A stretch of DNA of 64,000 nucleotides, from assembly GCA_963977015.1 (NCBI GenBank), contig CAXBMO010000006.1, positions 224,001-288,000 on the forward strand, written 5' to 3'. The translations under genes and the position numbers were made by a program. Below, in pieces: positions 15,680 through 25,114 of the stretch; the stretch's first letter is position 1; each line of letters begins with the position of its first letter. The notes under the pieces are model-generated. The model was not told where the DNA came from, did no database searches, and worked only from the letters and a program-made list of their open reading frames with translations. The DNA is from an uncultured bacterium (GTDB lineage Bacteria; Verrucomicrobiota; Verrucomicrobiia; Verrucomicrobiales; DEV007).

Positions 15680-16813
15680 TCAGGGAATCAGTTGCATCCG
15701 GCGTTTGCGAAAACGGACTTGCCGGATGTCGACGATGATCACCTGCGGATGGGTCGACGGAACCAGGTGGATCCAGTTGTCCGGCGGTGAATCGGAAACC
15801 ACGATCAGCTGTTCATCGGTCGGGACGCTCTGGAGGATCTCGGCAAGCTCGCTCGGCTTCGTCGGTTTGGGATGTGGGGTTTGCGCGAGGAGGGCGAGGC
15901 AATCGGAGTATTGGGCGCGGTTCTCGCAGGGGCGACAGAGCCAGTTCGTAAAGTCGGCTTGCAGCGTGATCCTGGTCTGGCCCGCCTGGAGATAGTTCAG
16001 GGTCCCGGCGACCAGCGAAAGTCCGCGTTCAAAACGGTCAAACCGAATCACCTCACCGGTCGTGGGTTGGGAATGGAAAATGAGGCGACAGCGATAAGGA
16101 TGAAAACCCGGCGGATCGTAGGCTCTCACCTGCAAACTCTGGTCCCGGGCCAACGAGCGCGCCGTCGCGGATTGATGAATCCGGTTCGCCGGATCGCCCG
16201 GCTGATACGGTCGCACCCCGCGTGGTTCGCCCAGAAAATCTCCCATCGCGATTCCGCTCGTCGGCATGTTGTCCGGTTGCGCCCCTTCCGAAAGCAGCTC
16301 GAGCGGCGTGATGAGGCGCGGGTAAACCAGGACCGGAGCGGGAACCGTCAAGCTTCGGCGAACCTCGAACAGCCCCAACGGAAACCGCGAAACCAACTCG
16401 GTCTCCACCTCGGAAAAGGCGGAGCGCACGGGAATACTAAGCCGATCATGAAGCGCGGAGCCGCTGCCGACCGGGGTCCAGGGCAGGTAACCGAGACGCT
16501 CGACGTTTTGCGGAAATCGGATCGCCACCGTCACCTGGTAGGCATCCAGCAAGCGCCGCCCGTTCCACAACTCCGCATTGTAGGGAACGCTTCGAGCCGC
16601 ATGAAAACGTCGCGGCACCTGAAGCCTCAGCTCCAGATTTCGCAGGTTCAACGGAGCGAGAACCTGGCCGCACCCCACCAGCAGCAGACCACAGAATCCC
16701 AACGTCATCATCGCCCCGTCATGGAACAGGGTTCCGACAATGAGCAGCATCGCCGCGCCACAAGCGAGAGCGACGCCGAGTCCGGTGATCGTGCGGTGAA
16801 TCCCTTGTTCCAC
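15680..16813 (-). CDS. DUF58 protein
   Basis: SRFPLGLF, VLVYPR, GVRPYQPGDP.NRIH; in MoxR operon. Confidence 0.88.
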   Translation of the reverse strand: MEQGIHRTITGLGVALACGAAMLLIVGTLFHDGAMMTLGFCGLLLVGCGQVLAPLNLRNLELRLQVPRRFHAARSVPYNAELWNGRRLLDAYQVTVAIRFPQNVERLGYLPWTPVGSGSALHDRLSIPVRSAFSEVETELVSRFPLGLFEVRRSLTVPAPVLVYPRLITPLELLSEGAQPDNMPTSGIAMGDFLGEPRGVRPYQPGDPANRIHQSATARSLARDQSLQVRAYDPPGFHPYRCRLIFHSQPTTGEVIRFDRFERGLSLVAGTLNYLQAGQTRITLQADFTNWLCRPCENRAQYSDCLALLAQTPHPKPTKPSELAEILQSVPTDEQLIVVSDSPPDNWIHLVPSTHPQVIIVDIRQVRFRKRRMQLIP

Positions 16814-17728
16814 CTAACCCACCTTGGTTTGTTCGAGAGCCTGGGCAATCGCCAGCTCGGGATCACTTCCATCCTCGCAAATCAACCGGTGCCGCATCAC
16901 GTGGGGAAACATCTCCTGCACGTGTTCCGGCAGCGTCGCCGATTCTCCCGCAATCAACGCCCGCGCCTGCGACGCGCGCAACAGTGCAATCGATCCGCGA
17001 ACCGAGACCGTATGCTCGCCGCCGGCCAATCGGCGCAACGTCTCACTCAACGCGACGACATAACGCGTTAGCTCATCACTCACCGTCAGCTCGGGAACCC
17101 GGCTTTGCAGCTTCACCACATCATCCGGACTCAACAACGATTCTGTGGAGGCCGAATCGAGGTCGTCGGACGCATGCGTCCGCAGAATTTTCGCCTGCAC
17201 CGTGGGGGAGGGGAGGCTCATCGGGATCGAAAGCAGAAAGCGATCCAGCTGCGGCTCCGGCAAGGGAAACGTCCCCGTCGTCGACGTGTTGTTCTGCGTC
17301 GCGATGACCATGAACGGCGCCTCCAAACCGCGGGTTTCCCCATCGATCGTCACCTGTCCCTCGTTCATCGCCTCCAGCAGGGCCGACTGCACCCGGGGCG
17401 ACGTCCGGTTGATCTCATCCGCCAGAACGAGATTCGCAAAAACCGGCCCCGGCACAAAGGTGAACTCGTTCGTATGCGCCCGATACAGATTGTAGCCGAG
17501 AATGTCCGACGGCAGCAGATCGGGCGTAAACTGGATGCGCTTGAACGTTCCGCCAATCCCGGTCGCCAGCGCATGCGCAATCGACGTCTTCCCGATTCCC
17601 GGCGGCCCCTCGATCAGGGCGTGACCCTTCGCCAGCAACGCCGTCAGCAGCAGGTTGGCAGGCTCTTCCGCCCCCAACACCGTGGACACCAGGCGTTGAC
17701 GAAGTTGATGCAATCTCTCAGTAGGCAC
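16814..17728 (-). CDS. moxR: MoxR-family AAA+ ATPase
   Basis: GPPGIGKT, RIQFTPDLLPSDI, LADEINR, VIATQN, LPEPQLDRF. Confidence 0.93.
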   Translation of the reverse strand: MPTERLHQLRQRLVSTVLGAEEPANLLLTALLAKGHALIEGPPGIGKTSIAHALATGIGGTFKRIQFTPDLLPSDILGYNLYRAHTNEFTFVPGPVFANLVLADEINRTSPRVQSALLEAMNEGQVTIDGETRGLEAPFMVIATQNNTSTTGTFPLPEPQLDRFLLSIPMSLPSPTVQAKILRTHASDDLDSASTESLLSPDDVVKLQSRVPELTVSDELTRYVVALSETLRRLAGGEHTVSVRGSIALLRASQARALIAGESATLPEHVQEMFPHVMRHRLICEDGSDPELAIAQALEQTKVG

Positions 17729-17858
17729 TCGACAGTGATAGCGGGGCGGGGCGTGGATGAAAATGTCAAAATCCAGAATCTGGACCCGGAATCGTCCTTC
17801 CCGAGCTCGAAAAACGCCCGAGCCATCCCAACGGCTCGGGCGCAAACTGGAAACCTGT

Positions 17859-18203
17859 TTACGGCTCAGTCAGTAGTTCCACTACCTCCAACACCTTGTC
17901 CTTCGCGTAACTGTGCCCCTCCACCGTCGTAACGATTTCGCCCGCCGCATTGGTCGCGATAATGCCATGGGTTTTCAGGCCCGCTTTGGTGACTTTCTCT
18001 CGAACTCCCTCCGCCGTCATGCTGGCGGTCTCGAAGTTGATGGCATCACCCTGCTCGTTTTTGAGGTCATTCACGATGACCGTAATCTTGGCGCAAAGCG
18101 GTCATCCATCGAAGTACGCGTAAAACAGAGTCGGCTTCGAATCGTCGGCATTGGCAAAACCCGTCAGGGCCAGGAAGAGGATGATAGAATGGAGGTATTT
18201 CAT
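17859..18203 (-). CDS. Secreted thioredoxin-like selenoprotein (UxxC), 114 aa
   Basis: MKYLHSIILFLALTGFANA signal peptide, then LFYAYFDG-TGA-PLCAK in frame with ORF 17859-18074; SECIS-like hairpin downstream of the TGA. Confidence 0.82.
18065..18081 (-). promoter_or_regulatory. Candidate bacterial SECIS element
   Basis: GGUCAU-CGUGA-AUGACC hairpin with a GU-containing loop beginning 26 nt after the UGA. Confidence 0.6.
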
Positions 18204-18289
18204 AAGAACTTTTCGACTATCACGCCAACCCCGCTTCTGGCGAACCATTTTTCGTGAAGGGGAATCCCCCAATCGTGTCACCTTCCAGC

Positions 18290-18378
18290 GTAAATTGGGA
18301 CACCGGCCCGTTCCCGCAGGCGAAGGGCCCGTTCGACCAGCCGGATTCTCTGGGGAACGGGTCAGTGCCCCGTTTTAC
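18290..18378. repeat. Palindromic MITE/REP-like element, copy 1
   Basis: GTAAATTGGGACACCGGCCCGTTCC...GGAACGGGTCAGTGCCCCGTTTTAC; homologous to 25198-25276. Confidence 0.8.
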
Positions 18379-18553
18379 TGGCGTGAATTGGACGCGATGG
18401 AATTGGGCCGGATATCTTGATGCGCTGAGTTGATCGGCAAATGGCTCACGGGGGAGTTCACGATCCGAACCAAGCTCCTGCTTTGGCGAGAAACCTACGA
18501 TTCGTCTCCTTCCTCACGTTGCGATCCGAAAAAATCGGTCTAGGCTCCGGGCC

Positions 18554-19630
18554 ATGAAAATCCCCATCTATTTTGTCGCCGCGCTTGGATTGACGTTCGC
18601 CGCCAACGCTGAGGAAGTCGCCGTGTTCGAGAGTGGAATGATCCAGCCGTTTTCGCTGATTTTCGCCGCAGATGGCACGGCCTACGGCGTCGAGTATGAA
18701 AAAGGGAATCGAGTCTTTACCATCAGCAAATCGGGGGAAGTCCGCTTCATCGCCGGTCGCAACACTCCGGGCGGCAAAAACCTTGGCGACGTGGCCGAAG
18801 GCGATGGGGGAAATATGGCCAAAGCGAGGTTCAACGGCATGCACGAACTGGCTCTTCATCCTGACGGGAAGCGCCTCTTTATCGCAGACACCTTTAACCA
18901 TCGGGTTCGCCTGATTGATCTGGAAACCGGCACCGTTTCCACCTTTGCGGGGCAAGGCGGCAACGCCGGATTCGGAGGTGATGGTGGCCCGGCCAGTGAA
19001 GCGAAATTTGACCAACCTTACACCGTCACCCTCAATCCCGCAGGCGACAAACTGCTGGTCCCCGATATCGGAAACCGCCGCGTTCGGGAAATTGATTTGG
19101 TTACCGGAAAAATCGTCACCATCGCTGGGAACGGAAAGGGAGGCATTCCCAAAGATGGTGAGCCGGCCACCGAGCAGCCACTCGTCTCGCCCCGTGCCGC
19201 CTGCTATGGATCGGACGGAACCATTTACCTTGCCTCCCGCAACGGAAACGCCGTTCGCGAGATCGATCCCCAGAGCAAAATTCGCACCATCGTCTCCCGA
19301 TCCGGCAAAGCTGGCTACTCTGGAGATGGCGGGCCCGCCGTTGACGCCCAACTCAACGGCCCCAAACATCATTGTCTCGACCCGCAGGGCAACCTCATCA
19401 TCACTGACGACGTCAACCATTGCATCCGGCTTTACGTTCCCGAGACCGGCAAGATTCACCTCATTGCTGGCGTTCCCCAAAAATCCGGAACCAAGGTCGG
19501 AAGCGGCCCCCTCGAAACCCAACTCAATCGCCCTCATGGTGCACGGATCGACGCCGAGGGAAGATTCTGGGTCTCCGACAGCATGAATCATCGCGTTTTG
19601 CGTTTTTCGGGGATGCCTAAGGTCGAGTAG
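18554..19630 (+). CDS. Secreted NHL-repeat beta-propeller protein
   Basis: Signal peptide; repeated GDGGPA..A.F..P and IADTFNHRVR motifs. Confidence 0.88.
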   Translation: MKIPIYFVAALGLTFAANAEEVAVFESGMIQPFSLIFAADGTAYGVEYEKGNRVFTISKSGEVRFIAGRNTPGGKNLGDVAEGDGGNMAKARFNGMHELALHPDGKRLFIADTFNHRVRLIDLETGTVSTFAGQGGNAGFGGDGGPASEAKFDQPYTVTLNPAGDKLLVPDIGNRRVREIDLVTGKIVTIAGNGKGGIPKDGEPATEQPLVSPRAACYGSDGTIYLASRNGNAVREIDPQSKIRTIVSRSGKAGYSGDGGPAVDAQLNGPKHHCLDPQGNLIITDDVNHCIRLYVPETGKIHLIAGVPQKSGTKVGSGPLETQLNRPHGARIDAEGRFWVSDSMNHRVLRFSGMPKVE

Positions 19631-19963: not shown

Positions 19964-22900
19964 ATGAACTTTTTATCCTTTTCCAAAACCCTTACCGTTG
20001 TCTTTTTCCTATCCAGTTTCGCCGCCGGAGCGGAGTTGCGATTCGCTGGTTCGCTGGGCAATTCCGGGGAATCCGGCGACACCCTGGTGACGTTTTCCGA
20101 GCAAACCGCCAGCGGGATGGGGCCGGTGATCGACGACGCGCTGACGATCTGGGAACGCGGCGGGTCGGGAAAATTGAACCGCTATGCGCTGGACGGACGG
20201 CTTTTGGCGAGTTTCGCAATTCCGGCGAGCACGGAACGCAGCGACCAGCTGACCCGGGCGGGTGATTTGCTGGTGATGAAGATCGGCCGGGGCTTGTTCA
20301 CGTTGCCGCTCGACGCGGTGCCGGGAACCGCAGCGACCCGGCTCGCGGGCGAGGCGGAAATCCTGTCATCATCCAGTTTCGAGGGGAAAGTCGCGGTGTT
20401 CGCGAAGAGTAGCGGAGAGGTTTCCTGGCTCGATCCGGCGACCGGAGAACGAACTCCGGCCTTGAAGCCGGATTTCCGGGTCACCGACTTGCATCCCACT
20501 GGCGACGGCACGCTTTACCTGTTCGGCGGGGGAGAAGTGCGCGCCTGGAAGGACGGGGAACTGCTGCCCGGGTTTCCCCTCGGTTTCAACGGCGAGCGGC
20601 CCCGGAAAATCGGGCGGTTCTGGTACAGCTTCAGCTGGCACGGAACCATCAACCGGATGAACGACCAGTTCGAGCCGGACCCGGGCGTGGTTCTGGGTGG
20701 GGCCTCGGGTTCGTTTATCGGTTACCTGCCGGAGAGCGTCGACCTGACTTTGGGGCGGGGAATCGCACTGGTGCGGGACGGCATCCACGCGGTCTCGGGG
20801 CTGGAAGGCGTGGTCCAGCTTCTGCAGTGGAACGGGGCGGAAGAGCGGTTCGAGGTGGTGCGCCGGATCGGGGCGTTGCCGGGGCTGAACGGCGTGGCGC
20901 TCGACGCGGCCGGGAACATCTGGACGCCGCACGGCAGTTGGCGCTGGGACGATTCCGCCGAAACGCCGAACACCCTGGGCGACAAGCGGCCGGATGTGAT
21001 GGCCCAGCCGGTGGTCTTGGATGGGCAGACGCTCTGCCTCTTGAAGAAGCATTACAGTTCCGTGCAGCTGGCTCGCGGGCCGTTCATCGACGCGAGCGGC
21101 TGGTCGCACTTCGACACTCCCGGGATCAAGAATTTCGAGCTGCCCGACTCGGTCAGCGGAGCGGCGGTGGTTCCGGACGGGAACGGCCTGACGCTGATCG
21201 CGGTGGAACGCGGGGGCCAGGCCTTTGAACTCGGCATCAACGAGGCGGGCCAGCTGCGTTCCGCGCCGAAACCGGTGACGTTGCCGGGATTGCAGGATTG
21301 CACCAGCCTGGCCTGGTTCGACGGCCACCTCATCGCGGCGGACGGCGGGGAACTGGTCGCGTTTCAGCGCGATGGCGATGGCAACTGGAAGGAAACCTCG
21401 CGCCGGGCGGATTTCGGCGCCGAAATCTACGTTCACGGCGATGGGGCGCGGCTCGCGGTGAGCGACACCGAGAACGGAACGGTGCACCTCTTCGATTCGC
21501 TCGGCAACCCGCTCGCGACCCGTTCCGGCCTGCAGGCGCCGCGGCATCTCGCGGTCAGCGGAGACCGGCTTGCGGTGTTCGAAGCGGGGAGGCAGCGGCT
21601 CGTGAAGCTGGAGCTGAGCGCGGACGAAAAACCCGCGCCGGCCTTCGCGGCGAAACCGGCGCCTCCGGCCAAGGGAAAAATCGCGGAGCATGGCGAAGCG
21701 AACTTCCAGGATCTGGGGCGCCCCGGCGGGATCCCGTTTTCGGTCGCCCTGACTCCGGAGAAAAGCGGGCTTTCCCTCTCGATCCAGACGGCTGCCGATG
21801 CCGAAATCCGGATCGGGGTGGCGAACCGCCAGAACGCTTACCTCCTGACGAACGCCTCGGGAAGCGGCTCGCAGGGACGACTCGATTTCCGGCTCCCGGC
21901 CGGCGACTGGTCGGAGATCCGGCTCGCCGCGGCGCTGAAAAGCTCCGGGCAACGGGAACGATTCGGGTTTCTCGACCGTGCGCCGATTCACGCCCCGTTT
22001 TCGGACGCCCCGGCGACCTGGGCGCCGTTCGATCTCGACGCCTACCGCGAAACCGTCACCGCGCGGCAGCAGGAAATCCGGCTCACCTTCGAGCAAGCGG
22101 TGGCCGGCAAGGCGACGCTGGTGATCGAGAACGAAGCCGGGCAACGGATCCGCAACCTGGTTTCGGGCCGCTCGTTAGAGGCCGGAAAACACACCGTGAT
22201 CTGGGACGGCCTCGATGAAACCGGGAACCTGATCGCGCCGGGAACCTATCACTGGCGCGGTATCACCCATCCCGGGATCGAGCCGGTCTACCGAATGCAT
22301 TTCGCGAACGGCGGCGAGGAAACCACCGCGCCCTGGGGGCCGAACCACAGCACCTTTCACCACGCCGCGACCAACGGCGAGCTGGTTTTTTTCGCCGCGC
22401 CGGTGACCGAAGGCGGCTGGGCCCTGGTCGCGCTGGACGCGGACGGCAAGCTGGTCCAGGGCTACGAGCATCAGCACGGGTTCGGGATCCAGCACGACGC
22501 GATCGCCGCCGACGAGCGCTACCTTTACTGCGCCCAGGACGGCTTCGCCTGGGGCGGCACCAAGGGCGTCGACTTCAAGGACGCGAAGTGGACTGCGACC
22601 TGGTCGCTCACCGTGGTGCGTTATGACATTGCCTCCGGCAAAATGATCGAGTTTCCCGGCAAACGGCGCGCCTTGGAAGTGGGGACGATGGAGGTCGGCC
22701 CGGGCTCGGACCATCCCGATTTGAGCGACTTCAACCTGGGCGGACTGGCCGTGGCCGAAGGGCGGCTCTATGTCGGCTCGCGGGCGCGCCAGGCGGTCCT
22801 GGTTCTCGACCCGGAAACTGGGGAAGAACTCGAGGCGATCCCGGCTGACGGGGTGCGTCACCTCGCGGTTTCGCCGCAAAACTTGATTTACGCCGCGACC

Positions 22901-25114
22901 GACACCGGCGTGCTCCGGCTCGGCGACGGAAAGCTGCTGGTTCCGGCTGGGAAGATGGATCTTTCCGGGATCACCGTGGCGCCAAACGGCGATCTTTTGG
23001 TGAGCGACCGGGCGACCCACCTCATCCGGCGTTTTACCGCGGAAGGCAAGCCGGCCGGGACGATCGGAACCCAGGGTGGCCCCTACAAGGGAACCTATGA
23101 CCCGAGCCGGATGGTCAATCCCGCCGGGCTCGTGTTCGGGCCGGACGGCAAGCTCTGGGTCGCCGAAAATCGTTGGAATCCGAAGCGGGTTCTCGCGTGG
23201 AACCTGGAGAAAAATCAGGTCGCGTTCGAGAAATTCGGGATGCCGCATTACGGCGGCGACGGCTCCGGATTCGACCCGGAAAACCCGCGGCGCTGGATCG
23301 GGCTCGGCTGTTTCTGGGACGTCGACATCGCGACCGGAGCGGCACGCCCGACGCACATCATTTCGCTGGAGGAAGGGCACTTCGGCAAGTATCACCCGCA
23401 GAGTTACTCCTTCTTCCGCGAGCACGGTCGGACCTTTCTCTGCGCCCGGGGCAAGATTGCCCTGATTTCCGAGGTGCTGCCGGACGGCACGATTCGCGAT
23501 CTCGCCGCGACCGCCGGCACCCATCATTTCGCCTACGGTTGCGGCTGGGAACCGCCCCAGGCCTACATCGACGCCTTTTACGAGAAGTGGCCGGAGAAAC
23601 GCGCCCTGGAGAAGCCGATGGGTCGCAAAGGCGAGGGCAAACCGTGGCGGGAACGCGGCATGGGCGTGCTCTGGGTCGACCGCAACGGCGACGGCGAACC
23701 GCAGAAGGAGGAGTTCGATTTTTGCGGCGACGACATCGCCTACTGCGACGGAGCCTGGGGCCATCTCCAGAATTCGCTGACCTTTTCCGTGCCGGTCGCG
23801 GACAAAACCCGGACCTGGGTCGCCGCGATCGAGCCGAAGGGATTTCTGCCCAACGGCGTGCCGGATTACCCGACCCTGGACGAAGCCATCGCCGCGGCGA
23901 CGCCGGTCAACCTGACTCCCGGCTACCAGCGCAACGGCGTCCCCACGGTGAGGGATAACTCCGGCCGGTTCATCTTCAATTCCGACCCGGAGATGAACGC
24001 CTACGCAGCCGACGGGCGGCATCTCTGGACCTACCCGAATCAGTGGAGCAACGTCCACGGCTCGCACAAGGCGCCCCTGCCCGAACCCGGTGTGATGCAG
24101 GGCACCCTGGGGATTCTCGGCCTGGCTCCGTTCGACGAACGGGGCGACGTCTTTTTCCTCAACGGCAACCACGGGCGCTGCTTTATCCTCACCAGCGACG
24201 GACTTTATCTCGACGAAGCGTTCGTCGACGTCCGGGTCAGCTATCTGAAAAACGAATACCGGCTCGGGGGCGAGATTTTCGGCGGCAGCTTCGCGCGATC
24301 TGCGACGGACGGAAAATACTACGTCCAGATCGGACACGGGCCCTACCGGATCTACGAGCTGACCGGACTGCAGGAAGCCCGGCGGATCGAGGGCATGCTT
24401 GCGGTCACTGCCGAGCAGATCGCGACCGCGGAAGCACGCAATCTGCGGCGAGCTGCCGAAAGCCAGGTCGCCCGGGAGGCCACCCTGCCCGGAAAGGTCA
24501 GCTGGGACAAGAGCGGCAAGTTCCGGGTCGAACTCGAGCTCGACGCCGACGCGACTCACCTCCACCTGCACTACCGGGTTCAGGACCCGTCGCCCTGGGT
24601 CAACAACGGCCGCGACTGGACCAAGCTCTTCGCCACCGGCGACACCGTCGACCTCCAGATCGCGACCGACCCGGCTGCGGATCCGCGGCGCCGCGGACCG
24701 GTCCCGGGCGACAAGCGGCTCCTCATCGCCGGATTCGAGGGCGAGCCGGTCGCGGTGCTTTACGAACATCGTAAGCCGGGTGGCGACGGGAACAATGCGA
24801 TCGAGTTCACCTCGCCCTGGCGCGGGGAAAAAGTCGACAACGTCCAGAAACTGCCGGAGGCGAAGATCGAGGTGAAGACCGGCAACAGCAGCTACGAGGT
24901 CAAGGCGTCGATCCGCCTGGAAGATCTCGGGCTCGAGCTAAAACCCGGCGAGACCTACCGGGCCGACTTCGGCGTCACCTACGGCGACGTGGACGGAACC
25001 GACACCAATCTGCGTTCCTACTGGTCAAACCCGAGCACCGGCCTGGTCGACGACATTCCCGGCGAGATCATGCTTTCCCCGGCGATGTGGGGCGACCTGA
25101 CCGTAGAACCCTGA
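19964..25114 (+). CDS. Large secreted protein: beta-propeller/NHL repeats, FlgD Ig-like domain, C-terminal CBM9-like domain
   Basis: Signal peptide; [15 protein letters not shown]...WDGLDETG...PGTY; NHL repeats; C-terminal [13 protein letters not shown]...YEVKASI...DFGV. Confidence 0.8.

Follow-up and report, generated by a model that had tools for sequence, protein, structure and literature searches.

A probable exported selenoprotein with a thioredoxin fold and a candidate metal site, hidden by an in-frame TGA in a verrucomicrobial genome

Does an in-frame TGA codon on the minus strand of a verrucomicrobial contig end a short leader peptide, or does it encode selenocysteine (Sec, U) within a longer exported protein? 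The question arises in a stretch of 64,000 nt (contig CAXBMO010000006.1, positions 224,001 to 288,000; hereafter the window, meaning the whole stretch that was analysed) from a draft assembly of an uncultured bacterium (GCA_963977015.1, here labelled G000; 6.9 Mb, 51 contigs, 95% complete). A single reading frame runs from ATG 18203 to TAA 17861-17859 on the minus strand and contains 114 codons plus the stop, with one in-frame TGA at codon 34 (18104-18102) in the motif G-U-P-L-C. The frame reads MKYLHSIILFLALTGFANADDSKPTLFYAYFDG-TGA-PLCAKITVIVNDLKNEQ...LLTEP, and its N-terminal part can be divided into MKYLHSIILFLALTGFANA-DDSKPTLFYAYFDG-TGA-PLC-AKITVIVNDLK.... The ordinary list of open reading frames (ORFs) holds a 71-aa ORF with a GTG start (17859-18074), which is the C-terminal portion of the 114-codon frame. 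A first-pass annotation of this DNA had proposed a hidden secreted selenoprotein here, and the parts it named (the frame from ATG 18203, the signal peptide, DG-TGA-PLC, and the orphan 71-aa ORF continuing in frame) are all present in the sequence. We consider it highly probable that the locus encodes an unannotated exported selenoprotein with a thioredoxin fold.

When 61 related genomes were searched in six frames with the read-through protein as query, seven matches had exactly one TGA, the window's own included. The same search gave five stop-free matches, three of them C-F-L-C forms (L027-L029) and two ordinary WCGPC thioredoxins. A profile search over 134 genomes of the same taxonomic family returned 45 matches in 42 genomes; 37 of these (37 genomes, 8 genera) carried exactly one TGA and eight carried none. 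We read 30 loci, comprising 27 TGA loci and three with TGT or TGC. The TGA occupied the identical column in 27/27 TGA loci, within the motif U-[PVIF]-[LFM]-C. On its 5' side, all 27 showed an ATG in the same frame, a signal-like stretch of hydrophobic residues, and a conserved strand of the form K-P-S/T-L-x-Y-Y/A-Y-F/L/I-D-G/Q. Both the CxxC homologs and the TGA-aligned orthologs that the first-pass annotation had suggested looking for were found, and homologs carry TGA or Cys at this codon.

If the TGA were a true stop, the locus would consist of a 33-aa signal-peptide-like leader and a separate 71-aa GTG ORF. Gene callers do give C-terminal ORFs of 70-80 aa in relatives, and Sec insertion is deduced here from sequence. 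However, the 12 codons preceding the TGA showed a synonymous divergence (pS) of 0.78 and a nonsynonymous divergence (pN) of 0.15 over 26 unique sequences, giving a pN/pS of 0.19. This selection at the protein level indicates that the upstream piece and the downstream piece are translated in one phase, and the phase between the two is always kept. The 71-aa product would also be missing two parts of what is confidently predicted to be a single domain, namely strand 1 and the UxxC motif. The Cys homologs are continuous proteins. In addition, the TGA form goes together with the Sec machinery. selA was found in 34/37 TGA-form genomes, the three genomes without it (G121, G130, G132) being 54-67% complete, and in 49/97 genomes without the TGA form; these are given as counts with no test, because related genomes are not independent. 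A true stop at codon 34 is therefore very improbable.

An assembly or sequencing error, or a recent pseudogene, would place a TGA in the frame as well, and the source is a draft in 51 pieces. The occurrence of the same TGA in 37 genomes of eight genera effectively refutes this explanation, and we give it practically no weight. Position 18102-18104 is covered by contigs of three public DNA runs that show TGA with no difference reported, and not the TGG or TGC that the first-pass annotation had asked about; all three runs belong to one study and may be the assembly's own source.

A phylum-wide search (401 genomes, E ≤ 1e-8, up to 10 candidates scored per genome) gave two weak stop-free matches beyond G000, and a scan of genome contigs gave one locus, which seems to duplicate the G003 record. 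The pattern used for the metagenome locus scan demanded Cys at the Sec column, so that a Cys form (L033) was the sole kind of return possible. In two public marine runs, contigs of another organism (one of them 24 kb long) matched the window solely at 18067-18113, the 47-nt segment from the TGA to the hairpin described below; three letters differ in this segment and both flanks diverge.

The genome carries the genes needed to read UGA as Sec. selA (498.1 bits), selB (293.4 bits), and selD (375.7 bits) were all found over their curated cut-offs, and Infernal detected tRNA-Sec at 61.8 bits (Rfam cut-off 47), so the sel machinery, whose absence the first-pass annotation would have counted against Sec, is present. 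ARAGORN called no tRNA at the tRNA-Sec locus. The selD gene has its own in-frame TGA in SCAG-U-ASK; the UxxK motif is listed for Sec-type SelD in Table 1 of PMC13188914. This gene (G000 contig C5:255715-256644, L009), itself a selenoprotein gene, is separated by about 7 kb from that of tRNA-Sec (C5:263260-263354, L001).

Could the UGA instead stand for tryptophan, or be passed by near-cognate read-through? UGA = Trp is on record in two verrucomicrobial ciliate endosymbionts, with loss of release factor 2 (RF2) among the tracked markers (PMC13462651). RF2 and the use of TGA as a stop matter here because this reassignment is on record in Verrucomicrobiota. RF2 is kept in the 6.9-Mb genome (480.6 bits against a cut-off of 370), and TGA closes 24 of the 42 stop-to-stop frames of at least 300 aa in the window, which makes it the commonest stop. 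Two orthologs of the selenoprotein gene use TGA as their own terminal stop. UGA is without genome-wide reassignment in this organism. Moreover, the column aligns with the catalytic Cys of thioredoxins, where Trp would be non-functional, and no other residue recurs at the column in homologs.

The database relatives bear on the same point. An exhaustive profile search gave 186 clusters at 50% identity (E ≤ 1e-3), Cys and Sec forms taken together. Classification of 156 sequences at the Sec column showed 68 CxxC forms, 80 sequences that start right after the column, five WxxC forms, and three others. Starts right past the column (MLC..., MC..., MFC... in other database relatives) are expected when a gene caller stops at TGA. 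Public calls cover the C-terminal 70-80 aa, and two such relatives (71 and 79 aa) carry the public name 'hypothetical protein'. The five entries with W at the column, always as WxxC, are P0004, P0011, P0014, P0028, and P0029, and taken at face value they would favor UGA = Trp. However, P0004 (from a 577-bp contig) shows four other differences in 105 residues from its ortholog in G145, whose DNA reads TGA at the codon, and P0011 matches the FDG-TGA-VLCS group. The first-pass annotation had named Trp in homologs as a point that would speak against Sec; the most plausible origin of the five W forms found is translation of TGA with a TGA = W table. These entries show how gene calling with that table can hide selenoproteins. 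Decoding of the window's UGA as Trp, or by near-cognate read-through, is hardly credible in our view. P0028 and P0029 have an IPG-W-P-x-C context as in the Cys-form branch, unlike the YFDG of the verrucomicrobial Sec clade, which suggests that TGA forms exist elsewhere in a second and independent group.

In a maximum-likelihood tree, a branch supported at 100/99 sets the 22 Sec forms apart, and the CFLC forms found in this taxonomic family fall outside that group. We read this tree as unrooted and without a direction of change. The CFLC forms of the taxonomic family have a lipobox-like Cys in the signal region. In two genomes of one genus (G135 and G137), the TGA form and a stop-free CxxC form occur together. 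Because both coexist there, the Sec and CFLC forms are paralogs and not simple replacements.

The hairpin that the first-pass annotation had placed with its loop 26 nt past the UGA is present at 18081-18065. It has a 6-bp stem and a CGUGA loop, with 26 nt between UGA and loop and the GU-containing loop at 27-31 nt. The loop-distance range of bSECISearch, a finder of selenocysteine insertion sequence (SECIS) elements, is 16-37 nt. Standard pairs filled 93.3% of the pair cells over 25 distinct Sec-form sequences, compared with 13-45% when the 3' arm was slid, and 0/500 shuffles reached 93.3% pairing. Five to six of the six pairs were kept in 24/25 Sec forms, against one to two of six in four distinct Cys-form genes read in the same register. 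Synonymous divergence was low at codons +8 to +11 (pS of 0.08, 0.55, 0.37, and 0) compared with about 0.8 in the flanks. The selD gene of the genome has a comparable layout, with a hairpin bearing a GUU loop about 35 nt past its UGA.

Several results count against the selenoprotein assignment and should be weighed with these values. Compensatory change in the hairpin was limited to a single case (U-A to C-G in L062; L061 has U.G there), and 78/500 shuffles scored as high for covariation. The stem is short (6 bp), and the single-sequence fold gave a z of −1.13, with 30/200 shuffles folding equally well. The conservation of the hairpin is owed in part to the conserved peptide VIVND. Sec insertion itself is argued from sequence, and no RNA runs for the stretch were found in the public run listing. 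An Rfam scan over 17700-18400 at E ≤ 10 gave noise matches and no SECIS family. The hairpin is consistent with a SECIS element and is probably a real one, a view that rests on conservation and not on covariation. The identity of the product as a selenoprotein remains very likely.

Export of the product to the periplasm through a Sec-pathway (protein export) signal peptide is likely. All the orthologs listed have a hydrophobic N-terminal segment that ends in a small-x-small pattern. We ran AlphaFold on a 58-sequence alignment, and the predicted local distance difference test (pLDDT) score was about 55 at residues 1-20 compared with about 96 in the domain. The mean pLDDT of the model was 88.5, and the value of about 96 held over residues 21-110. 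The predicted elements are β1 (25-30), α1 (35-51), β2 (56-61), α2 (67-73), β3 (80-84), β4 (90-95), and α3 (101-112). This β-α-β-α-β-β-α order is the order of the thioredoxin superfamily, with a predicted four-stranded mixed sheet and three helices. In the model, helix 1 begins at residue 35 and the UxxC dyad is placed at its N-terminus.

Structure comparison gave the same picture. Foldseek matched 162 chains of the PDB at E ≤ 1e-3, with thioredoxins at the top (TM of 0.62-0.67, prob 1.00), and VIA-align to thioredoxins gave Z values of 11-13 with a root-mean-square deviation of 1.6-2.1 Å over about 88 residues. The thioredoxin-fold order read from the sequence in the first-pass annotation agrees with AlphaFold, Foldseek, and VIA-align alike. 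An hhalign comparison with a classical thioredoxin of a related genome placed U34-P-L-C37 on the C-G-P-C of WCGPC with a probability of 88.9. A sequence search of the PDB gave weak thioredoxin matches (best E 1.3e-3), and the ESM Atlas, queried with the natural Cys form P0012, returned generic thioredoxin-family clusters at 0.94. On these predictions the domain almost certainly adopts a thioredoxin fold.

No family model describes this domain at its cut-off. Neither the window protein nor a single one of the 58 members reached the cut-off of a Pfam or NCBIfam model, and the window protein had no match to PF00085, PF13098, PF00462, or PF05768 even at E ≤ 10. The 58 members matched Pfam weakly: PF00085 in 5/58 (best E 0.0043), PF00462 in 2/58, and PF13098 in 1/58 (E 0.0069). 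The best NCBIfam match was TIGR00411 with 20.1 bits against a cut-off of 92.75, and 9/58 members matched it weakly. The clostridial TrxA model gave an E of 2.5e-5, which is below cut-off. SaoT (NF040730) was matched by 5/58 members (best E 7e-4) and TsoX (NF045809) by 4/58 (best E 1.4e-3), while NF047660 (HUIPC) and NF045500 (GOS_C) were not among the matches of the 58 members at E ≤ 0.01. The suggestion of the first-pass annotation that the protein is possibly a new family agrees with these results.

What would the protein do? The only invariant columns in alignment A3 (58 sequences, 24% mean column identity) are U/C34, C37, H79, G80, and H97. In the wider set, among the sequences covering each column, position 79 was His in 134/144, position 80 was Gly in 138/144 and Pro in one, and position 97 was His in 123/132. 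The hhalign comparison placed G80 on the cis-proline P80 of the classical thioredoxin and H79 on the residue before it. The cis-proline by which the thioredoxin superfamily is defined is thus missing from this family. According to PMC2757866, the cis-proline is more conserved than CxxC across thioredoxin-fold groups and belongs to the substrate-binding site. Metal binding by a thioredoxin fold once the cis-proline is missing is described for human thioredoxin cis-Pro mutants in PMC2757866 and PMC2665069, both citing Su et al. 2007.

The Cys-form relatives add further features of a metal type. Fusions were seen with an HMA domain (P0053) and with the Cys-rich DUF6370 (P0064, P0076, P0106), and His-rich N- or C-terminal stretches occur in P0047 and P0106. 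No paper on DUF6370 was found in the literature search. P0052 is also among the database relatives with metal-type fusions or His-rich stretches. Because the cis-proline is absent, His79 and His97 are invariant, and Cys forms carry HMA, DUF6370, and His-rich additions, we read Sec34, Cys37, His79, and His97 as a possible soft-metal binding site. This is our preferred mechanism, held at a little under an even chance. We put forward more tentatively the full reading, in which the site contains a selenolate and the family acts as a periplasmic binder or donor of a soft metal (Cu, Zn, Cd, Hg, or Ni) and not as a disulfide oxidoreductase.

The protein may alternatively be considered as an ordinary exported thiol/selenol-disulfide oxidoreductase like the periplasmic TlpA, DsbA, or DsbG. 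It would then alternate between a selenolate/thiol and a selenylsulfide state, and His79 and His97 would be catalytic helpers that tune the pKa or bind substrate. A thioredoxin fold whose helix 1 carries UxxC at its N-terminus fits this role, and many Trx-, Grx-, and Dsb-like UxxC selenoproteins, as listed in Table 1 of PMC13188914, are regarded as redox proteins. The residue preceding the cis-proline modulates redox properties according to PMC2665069. Against this role stand the absence of the cis-proline, in spite of its strong conservation and its part in substrate binding as given in PMC2757866, the conservation of two histidines like that of the cysteines, and the lack of a DsbD/CcdA-type partner beside the gene in the loci inspected. 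We regard an oxidoreductase role as a serious candidate that falls somewhat short of even odds. The first-pass annotation had called the protein a Sec-oxidoreductase; the Sec-containing UxxC motif and the thioredoxin fold stood up, whereas the word oxidoreductase is perhaps too narrow because the cis-proline is missing and two histidines are invariant.

The metal-site reading has its own difficulties. Most known UxxC selenoproteins are redox enzymes (PMC13188914). The metal-type fusions amount to four fused clusters among 18 proteins scanned and occur in distant Cys forms only, and the genes beside the Sec forms are of various kinds, none of them related to metals. In a thioredoxin fold, the loops bearing residues 79 and 97 would be expected next to the active site, and the proposed clustering of the four residues rests on this general architecture.

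With these points in mind, the proposed soft-metal mechanism would run as follows. UGA codon 34 would be decoded as Sec by SelA, SelB, SelD, and tRNA-Sec, aided by the hairpin 26 nt downstream. The 114-aa precursor with its Sec-pathway signal peptide would be exported to the periplasm, leaving a soluble mature domain, about 95 aa long, in which the thioredoxin fold is reduced to its minimum (β-α-β-α-β-β-α). The Sec34-Pro-Leu-Cys37 motif would lie at the N-terminus of helix 1, Gly80 would replace the cis-proline before strand 3, and His97 would follow strand 4. Sec34, Cys37, His79, and His97 may then cluster as a soft-metal site, through which the protein would bind, buffer, or hand over metal in the periplasm, the selenolate giving a higher affinity than a thiolate. 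If the site does bind metal, the family would be a natural example of what thioredoxin cis-Pro mutants do in vitro. Selenium would in that case be used for metal affinity in a small exported protein, and in a fold whose UxxC motif has until now been interpreted as a redox site.

UxxC selenoproteins with a thioredoxin fold form a well-known class (PMC13188914, Table 1), which continues to gain new families, and the present family can be compared with several of them. It resembles the Sec-containing thioredoxins and glutaredoxins (PF00085/PF00462 in that table) in its thioredoxin fold, UxxC at helix 1, and Cys homologs, but differs in scoring below the Pfam cut-offs, in its predicted signal peptide, in His-Gly in place of the cis-proline, and in the extra invariant His97. 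With the exported Dsb-type or thiol:disulfide interchange selenoproteins (PF13098, DsbA-like, DsbG-like; PMC13188914), it shares a predicted periplasmic thioredoxin-fold UxxC; however, it is minimal (about 95 aa) and lacks both the DsbA helical insertion and the cis-proline. The MJ0307 family of redox-active disulfide proteins (TIGR00411) is likewise a small, minimal Trx/Grx-like domain of similar length, of which the present family is not a member by score. SaoT (NF040730) and TsoX (NF045809) are recently defined Trx-like UxxC families, and the similarity to them is weak and below family level. No Sao or Tso gene context was seen in the loci read.

Two further kinds of protein are closer to the metal-site reading. 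The Sco-type copper proteins have CxxxC plus His. Together with the metal-binding thioredoxin mutants that lack the cis-proline, they are like the present family in having a thioredoxin fold, a Cys pair, no cis-proline, and a nearby conserved His. This likeness is the basis of the metal-site hypothesis. The family differs from the Sco type in having CxxC, not CxxxC, two His residues, and no Pfam SCO1-SenC match at E ≤ 10. Literature searches found no description of the family and, among the papers listed, none on verrucomicrobial selenoproteins; an earlier listing in the supplements of metagenomic surveys under a generic 'Trx-like' label is possible. To judge from its sequences, the family appears to be an undescribed one, without a matching model or a cis-proline and with its own conserved His-Gly and His. 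Because no model captures it and its records are truncated, the selenoproteome of this group of marine Verrucomicrobiota is under-counted.

The features of the locus are collected in Table 1. The terminator-like hairpin listed there had a folding energy of −27.2 kcal/mol and a z of −3.60, and 0/200 shuffles folded equally well. A scan with consensus terminator and promoter patterns listed nothing, this hairpin included.

Table 1. Features of the selenoprotein locus, in window coordinates
Feature	Position	Strand	Basis
Predicted complete selenoprotein coding sequence, Sec at codon 34	17859..18203	-	Sequence and orthologs of the same architecture
Predicted signal peptide, residues 1-19 (MKYLHSIILFLALTGFANA), AxA-type cleavage site before DD	18147..18203	-	Read from sequence
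In-frame TGA, putative U34, opening the U-P-L-C motif	18102..18104	-	Conserved column, Cys homologs, thioredoxin alignment
Cys37 codon, putative resolving or second ligand residue of UxxC	18093..18095	-	Invariant in A3; C in 103/106 covered sequences
SECIS-like hairpin GGUCAU-CGUGA-AUGACC	18065..18081	-	Pair conservation across Sec forms
His79-Gly80 codons; Gly80 at the thioredoxin cis-Pro position, His79 the preceding residue	17964..17969	-	Invariant in A3
His97 codon, GH motif after strand 4	17913..17915	-	Invariant in A3
Terminator-like hairpin, 13-bp stem, UGGG loop, then U-run; 15 nt past the TAA	17810..17843	-	RNAfold

Downstream of the selenoprotein gene lie a MoxR gene (AAA_3, E 2.4e-57), the ORF 15680-16813, and a gene for a Transglut_core protein. 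The first-pass annotation had described a co-oriented MoxR-DUF58-transglutaminase operon; MoxR and the Transglut_core protein were recovered, whereas the ORF between them (15680-16813, minus strand, 377 aa) showed no DUF58 and no Pfam match of any kind even at E ≤ 10. Adjacency to MoxR was seen in G000 and G003 only, among the loci inspected, and is not conserved even within the genus: in G002, of the same genus, a fatty-acid desaturase gene lies upstream and a PhoD gene downstream. In other genera the neighbors were genes for amidohydrolase, DUF1501, nucleoside symporter, glycosyltransferase, sulfatase, aldolase, anthranilate synthase, DUF1552, and VIT-domain proteins. Because the neighborhoods show genus-level synteny at most, and with the terminator-like hairpin separating the genes, membership of the selenoprotein gene in the MoxR operon was rejected. 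The gene acts as a unit of its own, and its surroundings hold no clue to function.

Some minor observations concern the neighboring genes. A DUF1501 gene adjoins the Sec forms of one genus (L034, L036, L046, L049, L051) and also the Cys form L048 of another. The DUF1501 family is probably expanded in these bacteria, and this adjacency may be due to chance. Another 377-aa ORF (18458-19591, minus strand) flanks the region and had no Pfam match even at E ≤ 10. Divergently upstream, the 1716-aa ORF 19964-25114 on the plus strand showed FlgD Ig-like, NHL, and PQQ_2/BamB-like repeat matches and resembles a large repeat protein of the secreted or surface type.

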